Shown piece by piece: positions 8,923-18,609 of a stretch of 64,000 nt of DNA; the stretch's first letter is position 1; the number at the start of each line of letters is the position of its first letter. The translations under genes and the position numbers were made by a program. Source of the DNA: Desulfobacteraceae bacterium CG2_30_51_40 (GTDB lineage: Bacteria > Desulfobacterota > DSM-4660 > Desulfatiglandales > Desulfatiglandaceae); NCBI GenBank assembly GCA_001874005.1, contig MNYJ01000137.1, forward strand, positions 8,535 through 72,534, written 5' to 3'. The notes beneath the pieces were generated by a model. The model had not been told where the DNA came from. It ran no database searches and was given only the letters and a program-made list of their open reading frames with translations.

Positions 8923-10797
8923 TTGGGTGAGGAAAATCCAAACAATATGGTAGGCATAAGAAAAAAGCTCTCCGGTCTGCTGGCCGAAGAATGCGCGAGA
9001 AGGGGCTTACTTCCCGAGCAAGGTCTTATCTATTGGAGAGAACGAATACTTCTGGCCGTGCTAGGAACGGCAGTGCTCCTCTCTGCCCTTGCAGCGGTGC
9101 CTGCGTTTTTCCTTGCCTTAGAGGAGAAGCTTTGGAAGCTTCTGATCCTCGATTGCTCCGCTTTTTTACTGGGTGTTTCTTTACTCCTGCTCAAGAGGTT
9201 ATCCTACAATATTAGGGCTTCTATAGTCGTGATGGGGTTCTATGGCCTTGGAGTTTCCATCATCTTCAACGCCGGTATCATGAGCGGGGGGCCGGTCTGG
9301 CTTTTTACCTTCGGTGCCATGTCCGGCCTTCTTATCGGACTGAGAGCTGCTCTCATGGCGGTTCTGCTTAATGCCGTAACCCTTGCGGCCCTGGGGAGCC
9401 TTTACTACAGCGGGCATCTCGAAGCGAGTATTCCTTACTATTTGAGCGGAATTCGCGCCGTTACGGCAGGGGCTAACTTTGTCGTCCTCAACCTTATCGT
9501 GGCTTCCGCGGCCGCTGTGATGGTAAGGGGTATAGAATTTGCGGCAGACAAGGAAAGGGATATTTCCCGATCTCTTTCCGAGGAAAAGGATCTTCTCCTT
9601 GAGGTAAGAAAGAGTCTTGAGCAAGAGGTAGCCTCACGAAGCGAGGCGGAGAGTCTCGCTCGGGAATCCGAACTCAAGTATAGACTTATCGCCGACAATA
9701 TCTCGGATATCATCTGGACGATTGATCTGACAACCATGCGGTATGAATACATGAGCCCGTCGGTTTTCAGGGTGAGGGGCTTCTCTCAGAAAGAAGCGAT
9801 GGAAATGAGCATGGAGGAGACCCTTTCTCCTTCTTCTTTTCAGGAGGTAAAGGGTTACCTCGCATCGGAACTTGCAAGAGACGGCTCCCCTGGAGTTGAT
9901 CCTGCCAGATCACTTACAATCGAGGTAGAGCAAACGAGAAAAGACGGTTCTTTTGGGTGGGTCGAGGTCACGGTGACCTTCATGCGGGACGAGAATGGGA
10001 GGCCATCGAAGATCCTCGGGGTAAGCCGTGATATAACTGAGCGCAGGCGCATTGAGGGGGAAAAGAGGGAACTTGAAAGGAGGCTCCATGAGGCAAGGAA
10101 GACGGATGCCATAGCAACACTGGCAGGAGGGGTGGCTCATCAGTTTAACAATGCCCTGAGCGTGGTAAGCCTGAGTATTGAGGCCATTGAGTCTCCATCT
10201 TTAGCTCCTGAAAAGAGGCCACGATACCTGAACAATATCAAATCCATGAAGGACAGGATGGTAGGTCTGACGGCCCAGCTTCTGGGATATGCGAGGGGAG
10301 GCAAGTACCAGCCGAAAAAAATTGCAGCCGGTGAGCTGGTTAGCACCGCGATCGAGCTGACGGGAGATATGGTAAAGGCGCCCGTGACTATGGAAAAAGA
10401 CATCCCTGATGGGTTGCACAACTTAAATGTGGATGTAACCCAGTTACAGATGGTATTGTCCGCTTTAATTGCAAATGCCTCCGAGGCCATAGAAGGGGAA
10501 GGCAAGATAACGGTTCGCTGCAGAAATATAGAGCTGTCGGAGAAAGACTCCATCCTTGATGTGCGTCCTGAGCCCGGCAGATACGTGTGCGTAATGATCC
10601 AGGACGACGGCAGTGGAATGGACACTGAAACCCTGTCCAGGGTCTTCGAGCCCTTCTTCAGTACCAAGTTTCAGGGAAGGGGTCTCGGAATGGCAGCCGT
10701 ATATGGAATTGTAAGAAACCACGGAGGCCATATTGAGGTGGAATCCGCGCCTGACCTGGGAACCACCGTTCGTATTTACCTCAAGTCCGCTGATTGA
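8923..10797 (+). CDS. Membrane-bound PAS sensor histidine kinase (orphan)
   Basis: There are about 6 N-terminal TM helices, a coiled coil, a PAS domain (YRLIADNISDIIWTID...), an H-box region and HATPase G-boxes (DDGSGM, GRGLGMA). The start is TTG 8923 or ATG 8947. Confidence 0.8.
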   Translation: MGEENPNNMVGIRKKLSGLLAEECARRGLLPEQGLIYWRERILLAVLGTAVLLSALAAVPAFFLALEEKLWKLLILDCSAFLLGVSLLLLKRLSYNIRASIVVMGFYGLGVSIIFNAGIMSGGPVWLFTFGAMSGLLIGLRAALMAVLLNAVTLAALGSLYYSGHLEASIPYYLSGIRAVTAGANFVVLNLIVASAAAVMVRGIEFAADKERDISRSLSEEKDLLLEVRKSLEQEVASRSEAESLARESELKYRLIADNISDIIWTIDLTTMRYEYMSPSVFRVRGFSQKEAMEMSMEETLSPSSFQEVKGYLASELARDGSPGVDPARSLTIEVEQTRKDGSFGWVEVTVTFMRDENGRPSKILGVSRDITERRRIEGEKRELERRLHEARKTDAIATLAGGVAHQFNNALSVVSLSIEAIESPSLAPEKRPRYLNNIKSMKDRMVGLTAQLLGYARGGKYQPKKIAAGELVSTAIELTGDMVKAPVTMEKDIPDGLHNLNVDVTQLQMVLSALIANASEAIEGEGKITVRCRNIELSEKDSILDVRPEPGRYVCVMIQDDGSGMDTETLSRVFEPFFSTKFQGRGLGMAAVYGIVRNHGGHIEVESAPDLGTTVRIYLKSAD

Positions 10798-10882: not shown

Positions 10883-10919
10883 TTCGACAATCCTGTCGAG
10901 GTTTTCCCTGATTGTCGAA
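10883..10919 (+). promoter_or_regulatory. Perfect 10-bp inverted repeat TTCGACAATC-N17-GATTGTCGAA (candidate enhancer/UAS)
   Basis: The arms at 10883-10892 and 10910-10919 are exact reverse complements. They lie about 60-90 bp upstream of the -24/-12-like element. Confidence 0.4.
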
Positions 10920-10971
10920 TCCTATGATCCAGCCATGCAGATAACATGCTGATATTGAGCAATATATTGTT

Positions 10972-10986
10972 TGGCACAATCCTTGA
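10972..10986 (+). promoter_or_regulatory. Sigma-54-like -24/-12 element TGGCAC-N5-TTGA (imperfect -12)
   Basis: TGGCACaatccTTGA has correct spacing and a perfect -24 box. The -12 box reads TTGA rather than TTGC. It lies about 130 nt upstream of the 11118 ORF, and a sigma-54 activator is encoded 4 kb downstream. Confidence 0.35.
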
Positions 10987-11117
10987 ATAATTCCATCCCA
11001 AACGATGCTTGAGCTTTTGTGAGCGAAAGGCATCGACTCATTAGACAAGAGCAATTTTGATTTAGGCATCACTTTTACGGAAGAGGTTTCATTAATGAGA
11101 AAGGAGGTGAGAAGGAT

Positions 11118-11399
11118 TTGAAGAAAAGATGGGTTTCCCTTGGCTCGGCATGCCTATTGGCCCTTGCCCTATATTCATTTGGCAGTGATGAGGCCCTTGC
11201 CGGCCGGAACGGATCATCGGTCGGCAATATGTGGCAACGAGGAGAAAACCGCGGTCAAGCAACCGGAGACATGGCGCAGGTTCGCAGCAGGATGAGGCAG
11301 CAGAACCTGGGAACTCAAACAACCAGCAATGGGCAGGGAGGCGCCTCTGGGGTTTGCGATGGCACCGGCCGAGGGAACGGAAATGGACGAAGCAGATAA
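11118..11399 (+). CDS. Small secreted Gly/Asn/Gln/Arg-rich protein (P1), unknown function
   Basis: RBS AAGGAGG at 11101-11107 precedes a TTG start. The signal peptide is MKKRWVSLGSACLLALALYSFGSDEALA. The disordered mature part ends GGASGVCDGTGRGNGNGRSR. Confidence 0.5.
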   Translation: MKKRWVSLGSACLLALALYSFGSDEALAGRNGSSVGNMWQRGENRGQATGDMAQVRSRMRQQNLGTQTTSNGQGGASGVCDGTGRGNGNGRSR

Positions 11400-11485
11400 A
11401 TAATAAATTATGAATGATGAGTGGTGAATGATGAACAAGGTGAAAAAGGTAATTGAAAGAGGAAATTGCAAAAACATTACCACTA

Positions 11486-11590
11486 GTCATCCCGGCGGAG
11501 CCTGTCCCGGGCCCCGATCCGGGAGCCGGAATCCATAAGAATTGCTTCAAGGATAGACTGGATTCTCCGATCAAGTCGGGGAATGACGAA
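11486..11590. repeat. Family A palindromic repeat (..ccggcg..gccgg-aatcc..ctggattc..ggaatgacg type)
   Basis: It shares the catcccggcggagcc...gagccggaatcc...ctggattctccgatcaagtcggggaatgacg core with the copies at 21432-21570, 43424-43503, 52258-52340 and 56876-56945. Confidence 0.4.
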
Positions 11591-11661
11591 ACTGTGAATT
11601 TTGCAATTGCCTCGGAAGTAAAATAATCAACAGGCATTGGAAGGAAAAGGAGGAATTGATA

Positions 11662-12147
11662 ATGAAAAATAGAATGGGTGCTGTCTTTGCAGTATTGGCT
11701 CTTATATTGCTTAGCCCTATGTGGGCACTTGCGGGAAACGGCAAGGGTGTTATGGATGGAACCGGGCCGGCGCCGAAACATGATCTGTTGCAGGGGATTC
11801 CTTTTGAATATACCGGCACAGTTGTGGAGTGTAATGACGGTCAGGGCCTTGTTCTTTATGTCGGCGATGAAGGCGGAGAGGAATTCAGCGTCGTTATCAG
11901 CGGCATAGGCCCGCAGCGTTACTGGGACCTGATGGGAGTGTCTCGACCTGACGTAACTGACGTCATCACAGTCGAAGGTTATAAGATCACGGTCGGCGAG
12001 CTTGCATTTAACGTCGCATTTAAGATAACTTTTATAAACGAGGAAGATGAGCCCGGGGCCAGCATCCAGCTCCGCGATCCGGATACGGGCCTTCCCCTCT
12101 GGAGAAAGGCAAAGCTCAAGATGAACAAGAAAGGCTGCGAGGAATAG
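11662..12147 (+). CDS. Secreted protein (P2) with N-terminal GNGKGVMDGTGP segment and beta-rich domain, unknown function
   Basis: ATG at 11662 lies 8 nt after RBS AAGGAGG. The signal peptide is MKNRMGAVFAVLALILLSPMWALA. The antisense 363-aa ORF 11092..12183 is rejected. Confidence 0.65.
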   Translation: MKNRMGAVFAVLALILLSPMWALAGNGKGVMDGTGPAPKHDLLQGIPFEYTGTVVECNDGQGLVLYVGDEGGEEFSVVISGIGPQRYWDLMGVSRPDVTDVITVEGYKITVGELAFNVAFKITFINEEDEPGASIQLRDPDTGLPLWRKAKLKMNKKGCEE

Positions 12148-12151
12148 GTAA

Positions 12152-13195
12152 TTGAGAAGGGGTGCCTTACCAGCGTGGTTCACTAAGCGGTTGTGGTTCC
12201 CCTTCTTTTTTTCCCTGATACTCCTCTTCCGTGTCTACAGCCTACATGCGGCTGAACTCACGCTAACCTCCTCCGCCGGATATGACAGCAATCCGGCGCG
12301 TTACGAAGATGAGGAAGGCTCTTTCTTTGCGGCTTACGGGGTTTCTGCCTCCCATAGACTCATCTCCACCAATCGCGCTAATCTTGGAATAGCCGCAAGC
12401 GCATCATATCGTGATCATTTTTCCCTGGGGGACAATTATAGACTGGAGGCGGGACCCGAGTTGTCATTCCCCCTGTTCCATGGAGCCTTGATCCCTGCCG
12501 TTTCAGTGGGAGCCGTTATCTACCGTGATTATCTGGTGGATGAAGATGAAAGAAACGAGGTTTTTGCCGATCTGGGCCTTGCCTGGTTTGCGAGCCGGAG
12601 TGCTGTTATTACACTCCGCACAGGCGTAAGGAGGCTTGATTATCTCAATGAAGCCTCTAGTTACGGGGGAAGGGCGGACGGCGGCAGCCATATTGGAAGA
12701 GGCGGTATGGGCCGCGCTTCTTTTCGGAATGGGAAAGGCCCCGGCGGCGGGCAGGGGCAAGGGACGCCAGGCGGAAGTACTGGAAACACCGACGGACAAC
12801 CGGTTGTTTATCCCGGCCGCGAAGACAATCTAATTACCCTTGGGGCCGATCTGGATCTTGCGTTATCTCCCTCATTATCGCTGGGCATATACGGATCGTA
12901 TTCAAGGCTTGATTCCTCCAGATCCGAAGAGACGAGAGACATCGCGGAATTAGGCGCATCGCTTGAGAAGAGGTGGGAGGATCTATGGGCCGCTGATTTC
13001 AACGCCTCGGTCAGATCCTCCTGGTTTCACGAATCGCGCAGGGACAAAGGCGCTTTTATTTCCCTTCGTCTTTCGAGGTTTTTCGGAAGATGGCGGCTTT
13101 TTGCGGGAGCGGACCTCAGCCGGAATGATTCAACGGCAGGGGGGGAATCATATACTCAGGTAATGACTGAATGCGGCGTATCCTGTTCATATTAA
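12152..13195 (+). CDS. Putative outer-membrane beta-barrel protein (P3) with Gly-rich loop insertion
   Basis: There is a signal-like N-terminus ending SLHA/AE, and AGYDSNP near the mature N-terminus. Amphipathic strands alternate (LITLGADLDLAL, LSLGIYGSYSRL, AFISLRLSRFF). The terminal residue is aromatic (..SCSY). The start is 4 nt after the P2 stop. Confidence 0.55.
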   Translation: MRRGALPAWFTKRLWFPFFFSLILLFRVYSLHAAELTLTSSAGYDSNPARYEDEEGSFFAAYGVSASHRLISTNRANLGIAASASYRDHFSLGDNYRLEAGPELSFPLFHGALIPAVSVGAVIYRDYLVDEDERNEVFADLGLAWFASRSAVITLRTGVRRLDYLNEASSYGGRADGGSHIGRGGMGRASFRNGKGPGGGQGQGTPGGSTGNTDGQPVVYPGREDNLITLGADLDLALSPSLSLGIYGSYSRLDSSRSEETRDIAELGASLEKRWEDLWAADFNASVRSSWFHESRRDKGAFISLRLSRFFGRWRLFAGADLSRNDSTAGGESYTQVMTECGVSCSY

Positions 13196-13554
13196 ACCTC
13201 ATTTTCCTTATCGCGGCGGCAAATGCAATTGCCGAGGACGCCCTTGTGGGGCGAGTGGTCTCCATCGGACCCGAAAAGGGAACCATTACGGTGATCCCGG
13301 TAGGAGAGGAAGAAGAGATTCTGGTGGGCTTCAAGGATGGGAAAGTACCCTTCGGGATTTCCGTGGGCGATATGGTGCGCGTCTGGGGAGACAGGGATTT
13401 ACTGACCAGGCTCTTCCAGGCAGGCTCCGTCCGGGCTGTTTCCGGAGGAGGCGCGGGTTCAGATCCTACGGGTGTAAGGCGCAGACTGGGCGGATCGGGC
13501 GGCATGGGTCACGGCGGAGGCTTTGGCGGCAGAGGAGGGAGAGGTGGCAGGTAA
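13171..13554 (+). CDS. Small secreted protein (P4) with Gly/Arg-rich C-terminal tail, unknown function
   Basis: The ATG at 13171 overlaps the P3 end by 25 nt. The signal peptide is MRRILFILNLIFLIAAANAIA. The C-terminus is SGGGAGSDPTGVRRRLGGSGGMGHGGGFGGRGGRGGR. Confidence 0.6.
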   Translation: MRRILFILNLIFLIAAANAIAEDALVGRVVSIGPEKGTITVIPVGEEEEILVGFKDGKVPFGISVGDMVRVWGDRDLLTRLFQAGSVRAVSGGGAGSDPTGVRRRLGGSGGMGHGGGFGGRGGRGGR

Positions 13555-15133
13555 AAAGCCATTCCCCCTGTGGGTTGCCAACCTTTTGGCCTTCGGGGTT
13601 TTCTTTGCGGCATCAGCCGGGTATCATCTCTGGCAGATGCGGCAGGCAAAAGAGGCGATGGAAGCCCATGCGTTGGCCCATGCGTCCATGGTTGCAGGCG
13701 TCATACAGAGAAATGCCGAGGCGGCCGTCATGACCAGAGAGGCGACGGAAGACATCCTCAAGGGACTTCTCGGCAATACAGCGCGTTTTGTGTCATACCT
13801 GGATCAGGTGGAGCCATTTTCGAGCGATGAACTTGCCGCCTTCTCCAGGGAGGCGGGACTCAGGGGCATAAGCATCAATAGGAAATCAGGTGCTTCGGTT
13901 GACGGTCCCGCAGGATGGCTCCAGGGCAGGAGCGATGAATGCAAGGATAAGCCGGCCCTGCAACACATACAGGGGGAGCACCTCTATCGCCTACTATGGC
14001 CTGCGGAAGAAAGCGAGGCATGTGTGGCGATAGGATCAGAGGCCCTTCGTCTTGAGGAACTGCAGGAACAGATGGGACTTGCCAAAATGGCCAAGGTCCT
14101 CTCTACGATGCCCGGCATAGCCTATGTAAAGCTCGGCAAGCAAGATCAGGATGGCTCCGAATGGGGAAAACTGAAGCTCTTGGAGGATGAGGAGTCTGGA
14201 AAAGACGTGGTCGAAGTCATTCTTCCCGTAGCTTCATCCTCTCTTTCAGTGGGGGTGGATGCGGATTATCTGACACTTTTCAAGATAAGGTTATGGAGGG
14301 GGTTTTTCATTTTCAGCACGGCCCTGGCCCTGTTCGGAGCGATTCTTTCCTTCCTGCTTTACAGGGGGCAGAAAAGAGAGCTTGCCGGGGTAAGGAGCTT
14401 TGAAAGGGAGCTATCCAGATCGAGAGAGGAGGCATCCCTCGGGAGGGCCGCTGCCGCAATAAGCCATGAGATAAAGAATTCACTCAACGCTGTTAATATG
14501 GGCCTTCAGAGGCTCCAGGTGGAGTCTCCACTTCTTTCATCTGAAAACAGACGGCTCATGGAGCTTATGTCAAGCGCGGTGTGCAGGGCCAATGCAACCG
14601 TAACCGGACTTTTACGCTATGCGAGACCGCCCAGACCTCGAATCGAGGAAGTATCGTTGGAGGCGCTCGTGAAAAACTGTCTTGAACTATACCGAGACCG
14701 AGCAGTACTCGCTGGAATAAGATTTGTGCTTGAGCCTTGGCTGAAAGAACCGGTCGCAGGGGACCCATCCCTCCTGGGACAGGTAGTTGATAATTTAGTA
14801 AAAAACGCAATTGAGGCCCAGCCGGAAGGAGGATTCATGGCAGTATCGAGCGGACGGGATGGGGAGGAGGGGTTTCTAAACGTAAGGAACTCCGGATTTG
14901 CGCTTTCACCGGATGACCTTGACGGCATCTTTGAACCCTACTTTACCACAAAGGCAGACGGCACAGGCTTGGGGCTATCCATTGCGAGCCGTATCATCAA
15001 GGCCCACAGCGGAAGGATGACCGCGCGTATCCTTGAAAAGGATCAACTGAATATAACCTTCTATCTCCCTCTTTGGAAGGGCCAATGGGTTCGTTCATCA
15101 AACGCCTCCGAAGGCCCGTTGGCGGCCGCATGA
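13544..15133 (+). CDS. Sensor histidine kinase with ~230-aa extracytoplasmic domain
   Basis: Two TM segments are present. The H-box is AAAISHEIKNSLNAV, the N-box LVKNAIEA, and the G-boxes VRNSG and GTGLGLSIA. The start is GTG 13544 (RBS GGAGGGAGAG) or TTG 13523, and it overlaps the P4 stop. Confidence 0.8.
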   Translation: MAGKKPFPLWVANLLAFGVFFAASAGYHLWQMRQAKEAMEAHALAHASMVAGVIQRNAEAAVMTREATEDILKGLLGNTARFVSYLDQVEPFSSDELAAFSREAGLRGISINRKSGASVDGPAGWLQGRSDECKDKPALQHIQGEHLYRLLWPAEESEACVAIGSEALRLEELQEQMGLAKMAKVLSTMPGIAYVKLGKQDQDGSEWGKLKLLEDEESGKDVVEVILPVASSSLSVGVDADYLTLFKIRLWRGFFIFSTALALFGAILSFLLYRGQKRELAGVRSFERELSRSREEASLGRAAAAISHEIKNSLNAVNMGLQRLQVESPLLSSENRRLMELMSSAVCRANATVTGLLRYARPPRPRIEEVSLEALVKNCLELYRDRAVLAGIRFVLEPWLKEPVAGDPSLLGQVVDNLVKNAIEAQPEGGFMAVSSGRDGEEGFLNVRNSGFALSPDDLDGIFEPYFTTKADGTGLGLSIASRIIKAHSGRMTARILEKDQLNITFYLPLWKGQWVRSSNASEGPLAAA

Positions 15134-16464
15134 CTGTCCTTGTGGTGGACGATGATCCCGTCCAAGTGGAACTTCTGACAGGATTCCTTAAAAAACAGGG
15201 TGTTAAGGTATTTTCTGCCCCAAATGGCGATGAGGGCCTTAAGATATTTCTCAGAGAGCCCGTGCGCGTGGTGCTCCTGGATCAGCGAATGCCCGGCCCC
15301 AGCGGGGATAAGGTGCTTAAGGCCATGAAGGAGGCCAATCCGATGGCCAGGATCATCATGGTTACAGCCTACGCCGATGTGCACACTGCTGTGGGGGCCA
15401 TGAAAGACGGCGCCGATGAGTTTCTGGAAAAGCCCCTGGATCTCAAACTTCTCCTTGAAAAGATAAACGCACTGGATAGCGACATGGGTGTTGATGAGGA
15501 CCTGCTTGTTGTCGAGGATGAGCTTGAGCGCAGGCCGCTGCCCCTCAAGGTGATTGCCCGAAGTCCAGCCATGCAAAAGGTGCTCTCGGCTGTTCGAAGA
15601 GTCTCTGACACGGACTGGCCCGTCCTGATAGAGGGTGAGACTGGGACAGGCAAGGAAGTCATGGCAAGGCTCATACATCACTTGAGTTCAAGACGGGATC
15701 ATCCTTTTGTTGATCTCAACTGCGCTGCTATACCGGAAAACCTTTTTGAAAGCGAACTGTTCGGCCATGAAAAAGGTTCATTTACCGGAGCCGTGAGCGA
15801 TAGAAAGGGCCGGTTTGAGCTTGCCGACGGCGGTAGCCTCTTCCTGGACGAGATAGGCGAGATGCCCCTTCTTCTCCAGCCGAAACTCCTAAGGGTGATT
15901 CAGGAGGGAAAGATATCTCGGGTCGGGAGCGAAAAGAGCCTGCCGGTAAACGTGAGGCTTATCTCGGCTACCAACAAGGATCTTAAGCAGTCGGCGGATG
16001 AGGGCCGGTTCAGGCAGGATCTATTTTATAGGGTAAAGGTGCTTGAAATCAAAACGCCTTCCCTGCGGGAAAGAAAGGAGGATATCCCCGACCTTGTAGC
16101 CTTCTTTGTAGAGAAGTACGGGAAGGGGCCCGTTCGGATGACCCCAGAGGCGATGGATATGCTTGTCAAGTATCCGTTTCCGGGAAATGTCCGGGAGCTT
16201 GAGCACGTGATCCAGCGCACTGTTACCATGGTGAGAAGCAGCCTCATAAGGCCCTCGGATCTGCCCGAAGAGATCCGTCACCATAGCCTTACTACCCAGG
16301 GAAGCCTCACGGAACGTCTGGAGAATCTGGAGAAGGCGCTAATAAGGGCCTCCCTGACCGAGAGTAACTGGGTACAGACCAGGGCTGCAGAGCGCCTGGG
16401 GATAAGTGAGAGGGTCCTGCGCTACAAGATGCAGAAGCACAACCTTTCTAAGGAAGTCTCTTAA
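15130..16464 (+). CDS. Sigma-54-dependent response regulator (NtrC/ZraR family: REC + AAA+ + Fis-type HTH)
   Basis: The ATG at 15130 overlaps the kinase stop (ATGA). Motifs are VLVVDDD, Walker A GETGTGKE, ESELFGHEKGSFTGA (GAFTGA variant) and a C-terminal HTH AAERLGISERVLRYKM. Confidence 0.9.
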   Translation: MTVLVVDDDPVQVELLTGFLKKQGVKVFSAPNGDEGLKIFLREPVRVVLLDQRMPGPSGDKVLKAMKEANPMARIIMVTAYADVHTAVGAMKDGADEFLEKPLDLKLLLEKINALDSDMGVDEDLLVVEDELERRPLPLKVIARSPAMQKVLSAVRRVSDTDWPVLIEGETGTGKEVMARLIHHLSSRRDHPFVDLNCAAIPENLFESELFGHEKGSFTGAVSDRKGRFELADGGSLFLDEIGEMPLLLQPKLLRVIQEGKISRVGSEKSLPVNVRLISATNKDLKQSADEGRFRQDLFYRVKVLEIKTPSLRERKEDIPDLVAFFVEKYGKGPVRMTPEAMDMLVKYPFPGNVRELEHVIQRTVTMVRSSLIRPSDLPEEIRHHSLTTQGSLTERLENLEKALIRASLTESNWVQTRAAERLGISERVLRYKMQKHNLSKEVS

Positions 16465-17102: not shown

Positions 17103-17133
17103 TTCATCATTGGTAAATGAAAGGCTGATCCCT

Positions 17134-18609
17134 ATGAAACAGAACATCTTCCTTATCCTTACCCAAAAACTATGGATAAGGGTTGTAAGCATCCTGACCT
17201 TAATTCTGGTTGTCGTGGTTGGATCGGTCATCTGGTTCAATATCCGTTCGCAGGAGGAATCCATCCGCGGCCAGAGCAGAATTGCCAACGGGATGCTCGC
17301 TGCCGCTATTGAGGGAGGCATATTTGACTTGCTGGCCGCTGGAAGAAACAGCGAGGTGAAGTCACAGCTTAAGAGACTCAAGGAGAAGATGCCGGGGATG
17401 GATGTCTCCATATTTGCCTTCAACGGCTCTATAACATTTACGACCATGAATTCCTCTGCAGGAAAGGATATTTCAGCGTTTCTTCACAACGAAGAAGCAA
17501 AGTCAGTGGTTTCCGGATTGCTGAAGGACGGAGCGGACACGGGTGGCATGTTTGATGAAATGATAGATGGGGCTTACTATGTAAGCACCTTCAGGCCCAT
17601 ATTGAATGAGGCATCTTGCCACCACTGCCACGGCGGCTCAAGAAAGGTACTTGGAGGTCTGCAAGTGCGCACATCCGCACAGGAGGCCTTGGATGCGGTC
17701 TTGTTTACACGCAATAAAAGTCTGATTATGGGTGCGGCGGGATGTGCGGCCCTGATAATAGTGATCTATCTCCTGTTTCAGCGCATGGTAAACAGGCCGG
17801 TAGTCAGGCTCCTTGAACTTGCAGGAAGGATGCGTCAAGGAGACCTTAGTCACAGGCTTGAGGTCCGGGGTAGAACCGAACTCAGTCACATGACTGCAAG
17901 GATGAATCTGGTAAATCAAAGCCTGTGCGATATGATAGGAGAGATCGCCGCCGCATCTGCTAAGATCAGCTCGTCAGCTACCGGCCAGGCCGCTTCGCTT
18001 GAAGAGACAAGCGCTTCGCTTGAAGAGATGTCCTCCATGACGCAGCGAAACTCCCAGGACGCTCAGGGGGCTGACGAACTTATGAAAGAGGCAAATCGTC
18101 TTGCTTCCCAGGCAAAAAAGTCCATGACGCTTCTGACAGAATCCATGGCCAATATCTCCAGGGCGAGCGAAGAGACCTCAAAGGTGGTAAAGAACATTGA
18201 TGAAATAGCCTTTCAGACCAATCTGCTAGCTCTGAATGCGGCAGTTGAGGCGGCAAGGGCAGGGGATGCGGGGGCTGGATTTGCGGTGGTCGCAAACGAG
18301 GTAAGGTCTCTTGCGATGCGGGCTGCCGAGTCCGCGCGAAATACTGCTGATCTACTGTCAGGTACGGCACGGAGCGTGGAGGAAGGCGCAGGCATTTCCA
18401 AGGAGACGGCCGTAGCAGTCTCAGAGGTTATCTCTTCCGTTGAAAAGGCCGCAGAACTTGTGGCCTCCATAGCAGGCGCCTCCAGAGAACAGGCCTCAGG
18501 CATCGAGCAGATAAACAAGGCGGTTGCCGACATGGACAAATCCACCCAGGAATACGCCGCCACCGCCCAACAGCTCTCCGCCGCCACCGCGCAGTTTAAA
18601 ACCCGATAG
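17134..18609 (+). CDS. Methyl-accepting chemotaxis protein with periplasmic c-type heme (CxxCH) sensor domain
   Basis: It has 2 TM segments and a ~170-aa periplasmic domain containing [24 protein letters not shown] domain follows, then the conserved MCP signalling hairpin ([21 protein letters not shown]). Confidence 0.85.

Follow-up and report, generated by a model that had tools for sequence, protein, structure and literature searches.

A conserved operon of uncultivated deltaproteobacterial lineages, probably a self-regulating envelope-sensing device built mostly from undescribed protein families

This analysis concerns a 64,000-nucleotide (nt) stretch of contig MNYJ01000137.1 from Desulfobacteraceae bacterium CG2_30_51_40, which we refer to as the window. 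The open reading frame (ORF) list places six ORFs on the plus strand at positions 11118-16464, encoding four small envelope proteins, P1, P2, P3, and P4, followed by a sensor kinase and a response regulator. Comparison with homologous loci (cited below by number as L007 and so on) indicates that these genes, from P1 to the response regulator, are a real operon that has been kept in uncultivated deltaproteobacterial lineages. The operon is probably a self-regulating envelope-sensing device made mostly from undescribed protein families. The features of the locus are the following.

10884-10899, no strand assigned: palindrome TCGACA-N4-TGTCGA, a putative upstream activating sequence, its centre about 80 nt 5' of the -24 element
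10913-10918, plus strand: third TGTCGA half-site, 13 nt past the palindrome
10942-10954, minus strand: IHF-like site (TATCAGCATGTTA) between palindrome and promoter, putative in function
10972-10987, plus strand: sigma-54-type promoter TGGCAC-N5-TTGAA (TGGCACAATCCTTGAA), with a canonical -24 and a non-canonical -12 element
11118-11399, plus strand: P1, 93 amino acids (aa), predicted to be secreted; disordered and Gly/Asn/Gln-rich, with a C-terminal CDGTGxGxGxGR; accessory
11662-12147, plus strand: P2, 161 aa, predicted secreted oligonucleotide/oligosaccharide-binding (OB) fold protein; accessory
12152-13195, plus strand: P3, 347 aa, predicted 14-strand outer-membrane beta-barrel with the C-terminal beta-signal ...ECGVSCSY
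13171-13554, plus strand: P4, 127 aa, with a signal peptide (by eye), a small beta-rich domain, a DxTGVRxR motif, and a basic Gly/Arg tail (GGFGGRGGRGGR)
13544-15133, plus strand: sensor histidine kinase with a first transmembrane segment, a periplasmic domain of about 220-224 aa, a second transmembrane segment, HisKA with its H-box, and HATPase_c
15130-16464, plus strand: NtrC-type response regulator (sigma-54 enhancer-binding protein) with REC, AAA+ bearing a GSFTGA loop, and HTH_8

From P2 onward the genes are tightly packed. A gap of 4 nt separates the TAG of P2 (12145-12147) from the TTG start codon of P3 (12152). The ATG of P4 at 13171 lies within the 3' end of P3, whose stop codon occupies 13193-13195, giving a 25-nt overlap. 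The GTG of the kinase at 13544, preceded by a GGAGGGAG ribosome-binding site, overlaps the end of P4 (stop codon at 13552-13554) by 11 nt, with a TTG at 13523 as an alternative start, and the ATG of the response regulator at 15130 shares the letters ATGA with the kinase TGA, an overlap of 4 nt. P1 lies upstream, 262 nt from P2. A consensus scan for terminators inside the block from P1 to the response regulator returned no convincing candidate. These junctions agree with the original prediction, made from the letters alone, that P2 through the response regulator form one tightly coupled unit. The longest ORF across P1 and P2 is a 363-aa antisense ORF at 11092-12183 on the minus strand, which is probably a mechanical artefact because the plus-strand genes are conserved.

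Each of P1 to P4 begins, as judged by eye, with a basic n-region, a hydrophobic core, and an AxA-type cleavage site, and sequence inspection found no lipobox Cys after the hydrophobic core in any of the four. None could be named, as had been predicted for P1, P2, and P4: searches of P1 to P4 against Pfam and NCBIfam gave zero family matches. All four had also been described as carrying Gly-rich stretches. This is pronounced in P1 (mature form, 24.6% Gly), in the P4 tail (14/20 residues), and in the loop of P3 (10/20), and in P2 it is limited to the short motif GNGKGxxDGTGP (5/20). The tetrapeptide D[GP]TG occurs in P1, P2, and P4, and elsewhere just once, in the G2 box of the kinase, in the 17,171 aa of the other long ORFs of the window.

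The exact P2 sequence is listed at NCBI under a Deltaproteobacteria metagenome-assembled genome (MAG) from Crystal Geyser, and a locus 86% identical to that of the window comes from a Desulfatiglandaceae MAG. A word-indexed protein search recovered five P3 clusters, all in the same gene arrangement. Nine P3-seeded loci were long enough to judge, 5 from close relatives and 4 with remote members (E 1e-19 to 1e-4), and in 9/9 of them P3 is accompanied by P4 and the kinase, with the response regulator present wherever the contig reaches that far; the protein next to P3 has 120-129 aa. The four remote loci, one of which is RefSeq-named uncultured Desulfuromonas, each contain P3, a motif-bearing protein of 121-129 aa, the kinase, and a sigma-54 response regulator, and the upstream P2 is absent. 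Scanning GTDB species genomes with P2 as the seed gave 15 loci, all in Desulfobacterota MAGs, with P2 followed by P3 in 11/15 and P2 alone in 4/15. At the P2-P3 loci these two are followed, as far as the contig extends, by P4, the kinase (35-47% identity), and the response regulator (55-63%). The corresponding scan of metagenomes gave 30 loci: 12 with P2-P3 and, where the sequence allows, P4, the kinase, and the response regulator; 10 with P2 alone and at least 2 kb of downstream sequence; and 8 that are too short, P2 thus standing alone in 10 of the 22 that can be judged.

Since the P3-seeded loci, the remote ones included, and the P2-seeded loci that have P3 keep the same four genes, the universal core of the cassette, judged by gene neighbourhood, is P3-P4-kinase-response regulator. 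The expectation that P2, P3, and P4 would always be found beside the kinase and regulator pair therefore holds for P3 and P4 and fails for P2, and the earlier picture of three equal secreted partners plus a barrel gives way to a four-gene core to which P1, which is lineage-specific, and P2, which is accessory, have been added.

P4 is recognised by the motif D-x-T/S-G-V-R-x-R-L/I/M after which comes a tail of 16-75 residues that is basic and in most cases rich in Gly; motif and tail were present in 20/20 distinct loci. The motif is invariant, exceeding the globular domain in conservation. Of 16 scorable loci, ranging from Desulfatiglandales to Desulfuromonas, 15 retain the 25-nt P3/P4 overlap. 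The ATG CGG start of P4 (Met-Arg) is dual-coded within the conserved E/Q-C-G codons of P3, and the near-invariant Cys-Gly of P3 may in part be constrained by this overlap. In L025 (9580-10179) and the L030 clade the tail of P4 extends to about 75 residues and is almost pure Gly (52 Gly), with DSTGVRQRLG retained. An apparent P4-kinase fusion in L011 was rejected as a gene-caller artefact, P4 being intact there in another reading frame.

Searches of P4 against Pfam, NCBIfam, and PDB sequence profiles identified no family or structure, with nothing below E 0.2 in the PDB search. Individual P4 members gave sub-threshold matches to TOBE_3 (E 0.031), to ExtJ (NF040942, E 0.012-0.03), and to NF033674, the NirD/YgiW/YdeI stress OB fold (E 0.037). 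The ExtJ match, seen in 2/14 P4 members, reached 14.7 bits against a cut-off of 52.5 and included the signal peptide in the matched region, and the NF033674 match was seen in 1/14 P4 sequences.

The original prediction of an outer-membrane barrel for P3 is supported by structure modelling, structure comparison, and family relationships. The AlphaFold2 model, built on a five-sequence alignment and of low confidence (mean predicted local distance difference test, pLDDT, 56.8), contains 14 antiparallel strands and a disordered, Gly-rich loop of about 55 residues (166-220) between strands 7 and 8. Foldseek comparison of this model with the PDB returned outer-membrane barrels exclusively, and the best TM-scores were to the 14-strand porin OmpG. 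The C-terminus of the family, QCG(V/L)SWS(F/Y), is a standard beta-signal in which the terminal aromatic residue is conserved. P3 thus has a signal peptide, an even number of antiparallel strands in its low-confidence model, and an aromatic-ended beta-signal, and on the strength of the modelling it is an outer-membrane beta-barrel. The usual topology rule would make the long loop extracellular loop 4 or place it, folded, in the lumen.

An exhaustive profile search found the P3 family to comprise 140 clusters at 50% identity (E up to 1e-3), or 118 at E up to 1e-10. When 97 members were scanned against Pfam, 15 touched BBP2_2 (best E 4e-8) and 4 touched OMP_b-brl; the P3 of the window gave zero matches to Pfam at E up to 1.

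The periplasmic domain of the kinase carries the core FLGNTARFxxYLDxxEPFxxxEL, conserved across all cassettes, and matched nothing in Pfam or the PDB (nothing below E 0.2 in the PDB profile search). The transmitter region is closest to AtoS and ZraS, and against the ZraS equivalog model the kinase scored 150.5 bits, far from the cut-off of 479. About half of the cassette kinases have a pair of Cys residues in the periplasmic domain (SDEC and SEAC in the window, where the domain spans residues ~26-249), which could form a periplasmic disulfide; the pair is present in L018, L019, L022, L024, and L064 and missing from the rest. The response regulator matches Response_reg (1.4e-25), Sigma54_activat (8.5e-73), and HTH_8 (9e-13) in Pfam, the complement expected of an enhancer-binding protein, and lies under every NCBIfam equivalog cut-off (AtoC, 404 versus 714; ZraR, 359.7 versus 760; GlrR, 331 versus 763).

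The sequence upstream of P1 has, as far as it can be read from the letters, the layout of a textbook activator-dependent sigma-54 promoter. The perfect palindrome TCGACA-N4-TGTCGA occurs as a single copy in the 64-kb window and is retained 5' of the cassette in near relatives, in distant Desulfobacterota loci, and in remote Desulfuromonas-type loci. The third half-site is found at the same spacing in L007, L010, L015, L024, L026, L029, L030, L063, and L064. Across all cassette clades the inverted repeat lies about 80 nt 5' of the -24 element, within the 80-150 nt expected of a sigma-54 activator site. The window contains five matches to the IHF-type consensus WATCARNNNNTTR, one of them between the palindrome and the promoter, and the near-clade alignment keeps an ATAACAT..TGATAT block.

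The promoter itself has a perfect -24 element and a -12 element that reads TTGAA, with the C of TTGC replaced by A. A sigma-54 consensus scan of the window gave 22 matches against 29 expected, no better than chance, and support for the site comes from its conservation. In the near clade, the upstream alignment shows TTTGGCAY-N5-TTGAATA kept within an otherwise diverged spacer across five lineages; the TTGAA form is shared by the window, L007, L012, and L010, and L015 has TTGTA. The promoters of distant and remote loci, about 80 nt past the palindrome, have a canonical -12 element: TGGCAT-N5-TTGCT in L024 and L026, TGGCAC-N5-TTGCT in L022, and TGGAAC-N5-TTGCT in L061. The TTGAA of the window clade could alter basal activity or activator dependence. 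This arrangement of promoter and palindrome travels with the response regulator across clades, and autoregulation by the response regulator is therefore the simplest reading. Control by sigma-54 and an activator, part of the original prediction, gains from the same conservation. The published sigma-54 regulome of Desulfovibrio vulgaris mentions neither the palindrome nor genes of this kind.

P2 is characterised by an N-terminal GNGKGxxDGTGP and by the motifs YGIGPxRYW and LRDPxTGxPLWR. Its AlphaFold2 model has a pLDDT of 78-92 across residues 41-150 and the topology b1-b3, helix, b4-b5, and every top Foldseek match was an OB fold (the LysRS N-terminal domain, Stn1, RPA32, PriB, and SSB). The E-values are modest (1e-3 to 1e-2) and the matches unanimous, so the model identifies P2 as an OB fold. 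A profile search of P2 against PDB sequences gave nothing below E 0.2. DGTGP had been considered as a mark of DUF5320; this was not confirmed, as P1-like and P2 sequences gave zero matches to that Pfam model at E up to 10, and a full-text literature search for DGTGP returned nothing relevant. Homology between P2 and P4 was likewise rejected (hhalign probability 0.7%).

Stand-alone P2-type genes are found in L013 (8001-8441), L020, L023, L027, L031-L037, L044, and L052, in Syntrophales, Syntrophobacteraceae, and other MAGs. They keep GNGxG..GTGP, YGIGPVRYW, and LRDPxTGxPLWR, and their neighbours are heterogeneous, without a common theme. P2 is thus an accessory member of a wider, unnamed family of small secreted OB-fold proteins.

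P1 starts with TTG behind a strong AAAGGAGGTGAG ribosome-binding site. The ribosome-binding site, the signal peptide, and the CDG(T/S)G motif are shared by L007, L012, L010, and L015. The gene evolves fast, and in divergent pairs changes at third codon positions exceed those at first and second positions. Public gene callers skip P1 and instead call a 57-aa ORF (11453-11626) that has no counterpart in other lineages. Analogous DGTG-repeat proteins occur in L018, L024, and L026, none in L019, L022, L025, or L029, and the P1-like proteins of other clades are long Gly/Ser/Asn repeats. The comparisons mark P1 as a lineage-specific accessory gene.

The 57-aa ORF lies inside an insertion: about 200 nt of the gap between P1 and P2 (about 11440-11640) is absent in all four related lineages. 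The gap of roughly 260 nt that the original prediction noted is therefore specific to the window lineage and not an ancestral feature of the cassette. The insertion contains a GC-rich hairpin at about 11492-11533, and a riboswitch or other RNA element was considered and rejected there, the folding z of -1.57 not being significant and Rfam giving zero matches.

Other genes for signalling and electron transfer flank the cassette. An orphan MASE11-PAS histidine kinase (8923-10797) ends about 90 nt before the palindrome and is syntenic in the near clade only; cross-talk between it and the response regulator of the cassette is possible. After the response regulator, on the plus strand, come a tetrahaem c-type cytochrome (Cytochrome_C554, four CxxCH; 16548/16632-17102) and a methyl-accepting chemotaxis protein (17110-18609). 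The cytochrome and chemoreceptor accompany the cassette in the closest lineages only, and L009, L010, and the remote loci have other genes in that position. All three were rejected as core members on the ground that they are retained in the near clade only.

We propose that the cassette is a unit for autoregulated trans-envelope signalling, with P4 as the link between the P3 barrel and the periplasmic domain of the kinase, and we put the chances that this is correct at about even. A single sigma-54 transcript would start about 120 nt 5' of P1 and extend through all six genes, from P1 to the response regulator. Once phosphorylated, the response regulator would bind TCGACA-N4-TGTCGA and the adjacent half-site, an IHF-type bend would help it to activate sigma-54 RNA polymerase, and the system would in this way amplify its own synthesis. 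P3 would form a 14-strand barrel within the outer membrane. P4, periplasmic and made in fixed ratio to P3 through the dual-coded 25-nt junction and to the kinase through the 11-nt overlap, would use its DxTGVRxR motif and its basic, flexible tail to make the periplasmic domain of the kinase responsive to the state of the barrel or outer membrane. P2 and P1, which are clade-specific and carry similar D-G/P-T-G motifs, would act as outputs or feedback modulators. Our leading guess for the signal is a perturbation of the envelope or outer membrane. We think that P3 and P4 more probably take part in sensing than serve purely as outputs, because they are always adjacent to the kinase, because the overlapping junctions are kept, and because P4 is best conserved in a short linear motif.

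Several observations weigh against this proposal. Co-transcription is no proof that P3 and P4 feed into sensing, since autoregulated operons that place the effector first exist, pmrCAB being one. The Gly contents of the P3 loop and the P4 tail do not vary together (rho 0.19, p 0.43). Confidence in the P3 model is low (pLDDT 56.8, five sequences), P2 is often found without the kinase and regulator, and the -12 element of the window clade is TTGAA and not the canonical TTGC. Finally, the searches made returned no cultivated carrier of the cassette, all known carriers being uncultivated.

The strongest competitor is an operon of effectors, in which the kinase senses alone through its own periplasmic domain and P1 to P4 are its regulon, an inducible porin with OB-type protective proteins that take no part in perception. 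The sigma-54 promoter precedes the accessory genes, which on this account are therefore outputs, the sole perfect palindrome of the window fits a small self-contained regulon, and P2-type OB proteins stand alone in other genomes. The periplasmic OB-fold proteins YgiW and YdeI are stress-protection outputs of enterobacterial two-component systems. On the other hand, the P3/P4 and P4/kinase overlaps are kept from Desulfatiglandales to Desulfuromonas, which is tighter than membership of a regulon needs; P4 and the kinase adjoin P3 in all nine of the P3-seeded loci that can be judged; and conservation in P4 peaks in a short linear motif, as is typical of a binding interface. We consider an effector operon less probable than a signalling role for P3 and P4, while according it substantial weight.

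Homeostasis of a metal or other solute, in the manner of ZraPSR or CusF, seems improbable. Here P3 would be a substrate-specific channel, P2 and P4 would bind or chaperone metals or oxyanions, and the kinase would sense the solute. Weak matches of some P4 members point in this direction (TOBE_3, the NirD/YgiW/YdeI stress OB fold, and ExtJ, a protein of the selenite/tellurite operon), but all of them fall far under the family cut-offs. Some P4 tails are rich in His, Met, and Gly, such as GIHHGHD...KHGHGGRGMGMGRNHGGG in L029, but that of the window has a single His and no Cys or Met cluster, and what is invariant in P4 is DxTGVRxR with a basic tail, not a pattern of metal ligands. The kinase transmitter is nearest to AtoS and ZraS, yet there are zero LTxxQ or Metal_resist matches, and the tetrahaem cytochrome gene just downstream in the near clade is not conserved with the cassette.

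Export or assembly of Gly-rich surface or matrix proteins, with P3 as the pore and P1, P2, and P4 as cargo or subunits in a curli- or Fap-like system, would account for the signal peptides and Gly/Asn/Gln-rich disordered regions of these proteins, for the co-encoded dedicated barrel, and for the long Gly/Ser/Asn repeats of P1-like proteins elsewhere, but it is very unlikely because folded OB domains are too wide for a barrel of 14 strands and the universal core does without P1 and P2; nor are there amyloid-type imperfect repeats or matches to curli or Fap families, and a dedicated kinase translationally coupled to cargo would not be needed.

Returning to the proposal that P4 links the barrel to the kinase, a more specific form of it can be imagined, which we regard as rather unlikely in its details. 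P3 and P4 would form a dedicated complex in which the motif and tail of P4 enter or thread the barrel lumen and the P4 domain docks on the sensor domain of the kinase, so that the kinase directly reads conditions at the outer membrane or cell surface, with P1 and P2 as feedback modulators that mimic the motif. If true, the threading complex would define a class of two-component signalling that depends on a barrel, has not been described before, and is widespread in Desulfobacterota and Desulfuromonadota.

The four core genes are linked at a rate comparable to that of well-studied three-component systems, and the dual-coded junction and the regulator site persist across order- to phylum-level divergence. 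If this linkage reflects contact between the proteins, it would represent a new route by which a histidine kinase monitors the outer membrane, through a dedicated beta-barrel and not a lipoprotein. P3 is tied remotely to BBP2_2, P2 can be assigned a fold but not a family, and P4 and the sensor domain of the kinase have neither a named family nor a solved structure; alignments of P3, P4, P2, and the sensor domain could seed new family models. The carriers are anaerobes of subsurface sulfur, metal, and hydrocarbon cycling, in which envelope signalling is almost unstudied, and the defined promoter, palindrome, and motif are testable in a heterologous host.

The cassette can be compared with systems already described. 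In the QseE-QseG-QseF system of E. coli (GlrK-YfhG-GlrR), a sensor kinase shares one operon with an accessory protein associated with the outer membrane and an NtrC-type, sigma-54-dependent response regulator, and kinase activity is controlled by the accessory protein through contact in the periplasm (PMC6075780, PMC12691602). The cassette likewise pairs a kinase with an outer-membrane accessory and a sigma-54 response regulator, making QseEGF a closer architectural analogue than ZraP. QseG, however, is a lipoprotein, whereas P1 to P4 have no lipobox and P3 is a predicted beta-barrel. QseEGF has no counterpart of the P4 motif and tail or of the P2 OB fold, its kinase sensor domain is unrelated, and the response regulator of the cassette reaches 331 bits against the GlrR cut-off of 763. 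The accessory genes of the cassette also precede the kinase, behind their own sigma-54 promoter.

The original prediction had taken ZraP-ZraSR, or CpxP/Spy, as the nearest paradigm. In that arrangement a sigma-54 promoter, controlled by the cognate kinase/NtrC pair, drives the gene of a small periplasmic protein that may feed back on the sensor (PMC4987338). The likeness holds for the regulatory logic and not beyond it: P2 is modelled as an all-beta OB fold and not a helical hairpin, P1 to P4 and their homologues gave no LTXXQ or Metal_resist match (E up to 1-10), the kinase and response regulator score far below the ZraS and ZraR cut-offs, and ZraPSR has no outer-membrane barrel. In addition, zraP is transcribed divergently and not with the kinase genes.

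In the Rcs phosphorelay, the small envelope lipoprotein RcsF partners with OmpA, OmpC, and OmpF; a flexible, positively charged segment of it can pass through the barrel lumen, and it can report perturbation of the outer membrane or lipopolysaccharide to signalling proteins of the inner membrane. RcsF is a lipoprotein that uses general porins, in contrast to the dedicated co-encoded barrel, the P4 without a lipobox, and the classical kinase and sigma-54 response regulator of the cassette. The bacterial OB-fold (BOF) proteins YgiW/VisP and YdeI/OmdA (PF04076, NF033674) are small secreted OB folds with genetic links to two-component systems; ygiW lies beside qseBC, and an interaction of YdeI with a porin has been reported. 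P2 shares with them the OB fold, from its model, and secretion, from a signal peptide recognised by eye, but it has motifs of its own and does not match the BOF models. P3 resembles BBP2_2 (PF10082) in size class, in GYDxNP-type strand motifs, and in its aromatic C-terminus, and differs from it in forming its own family, in being invariably partnered with P4, the kinase, and the response regulator, and in its single long central loop. The P3 of the window falls under the BBP2_2 gathering threshold and 15/97 relatives are sub- or near-threshold, and P3 is by this comparison a remote relative of BBP2_2 and not a member.

Judged by its sequences, then, the cassette resembles QseEGF and ZraPSR in logic and is a member of neither. 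It is a conserved unit on good evidence, a two-component system accompanied by accessory envelope proteins, and what sets it apart from those already described is its undescribed protein families and its dedicated beta-barrel partner.

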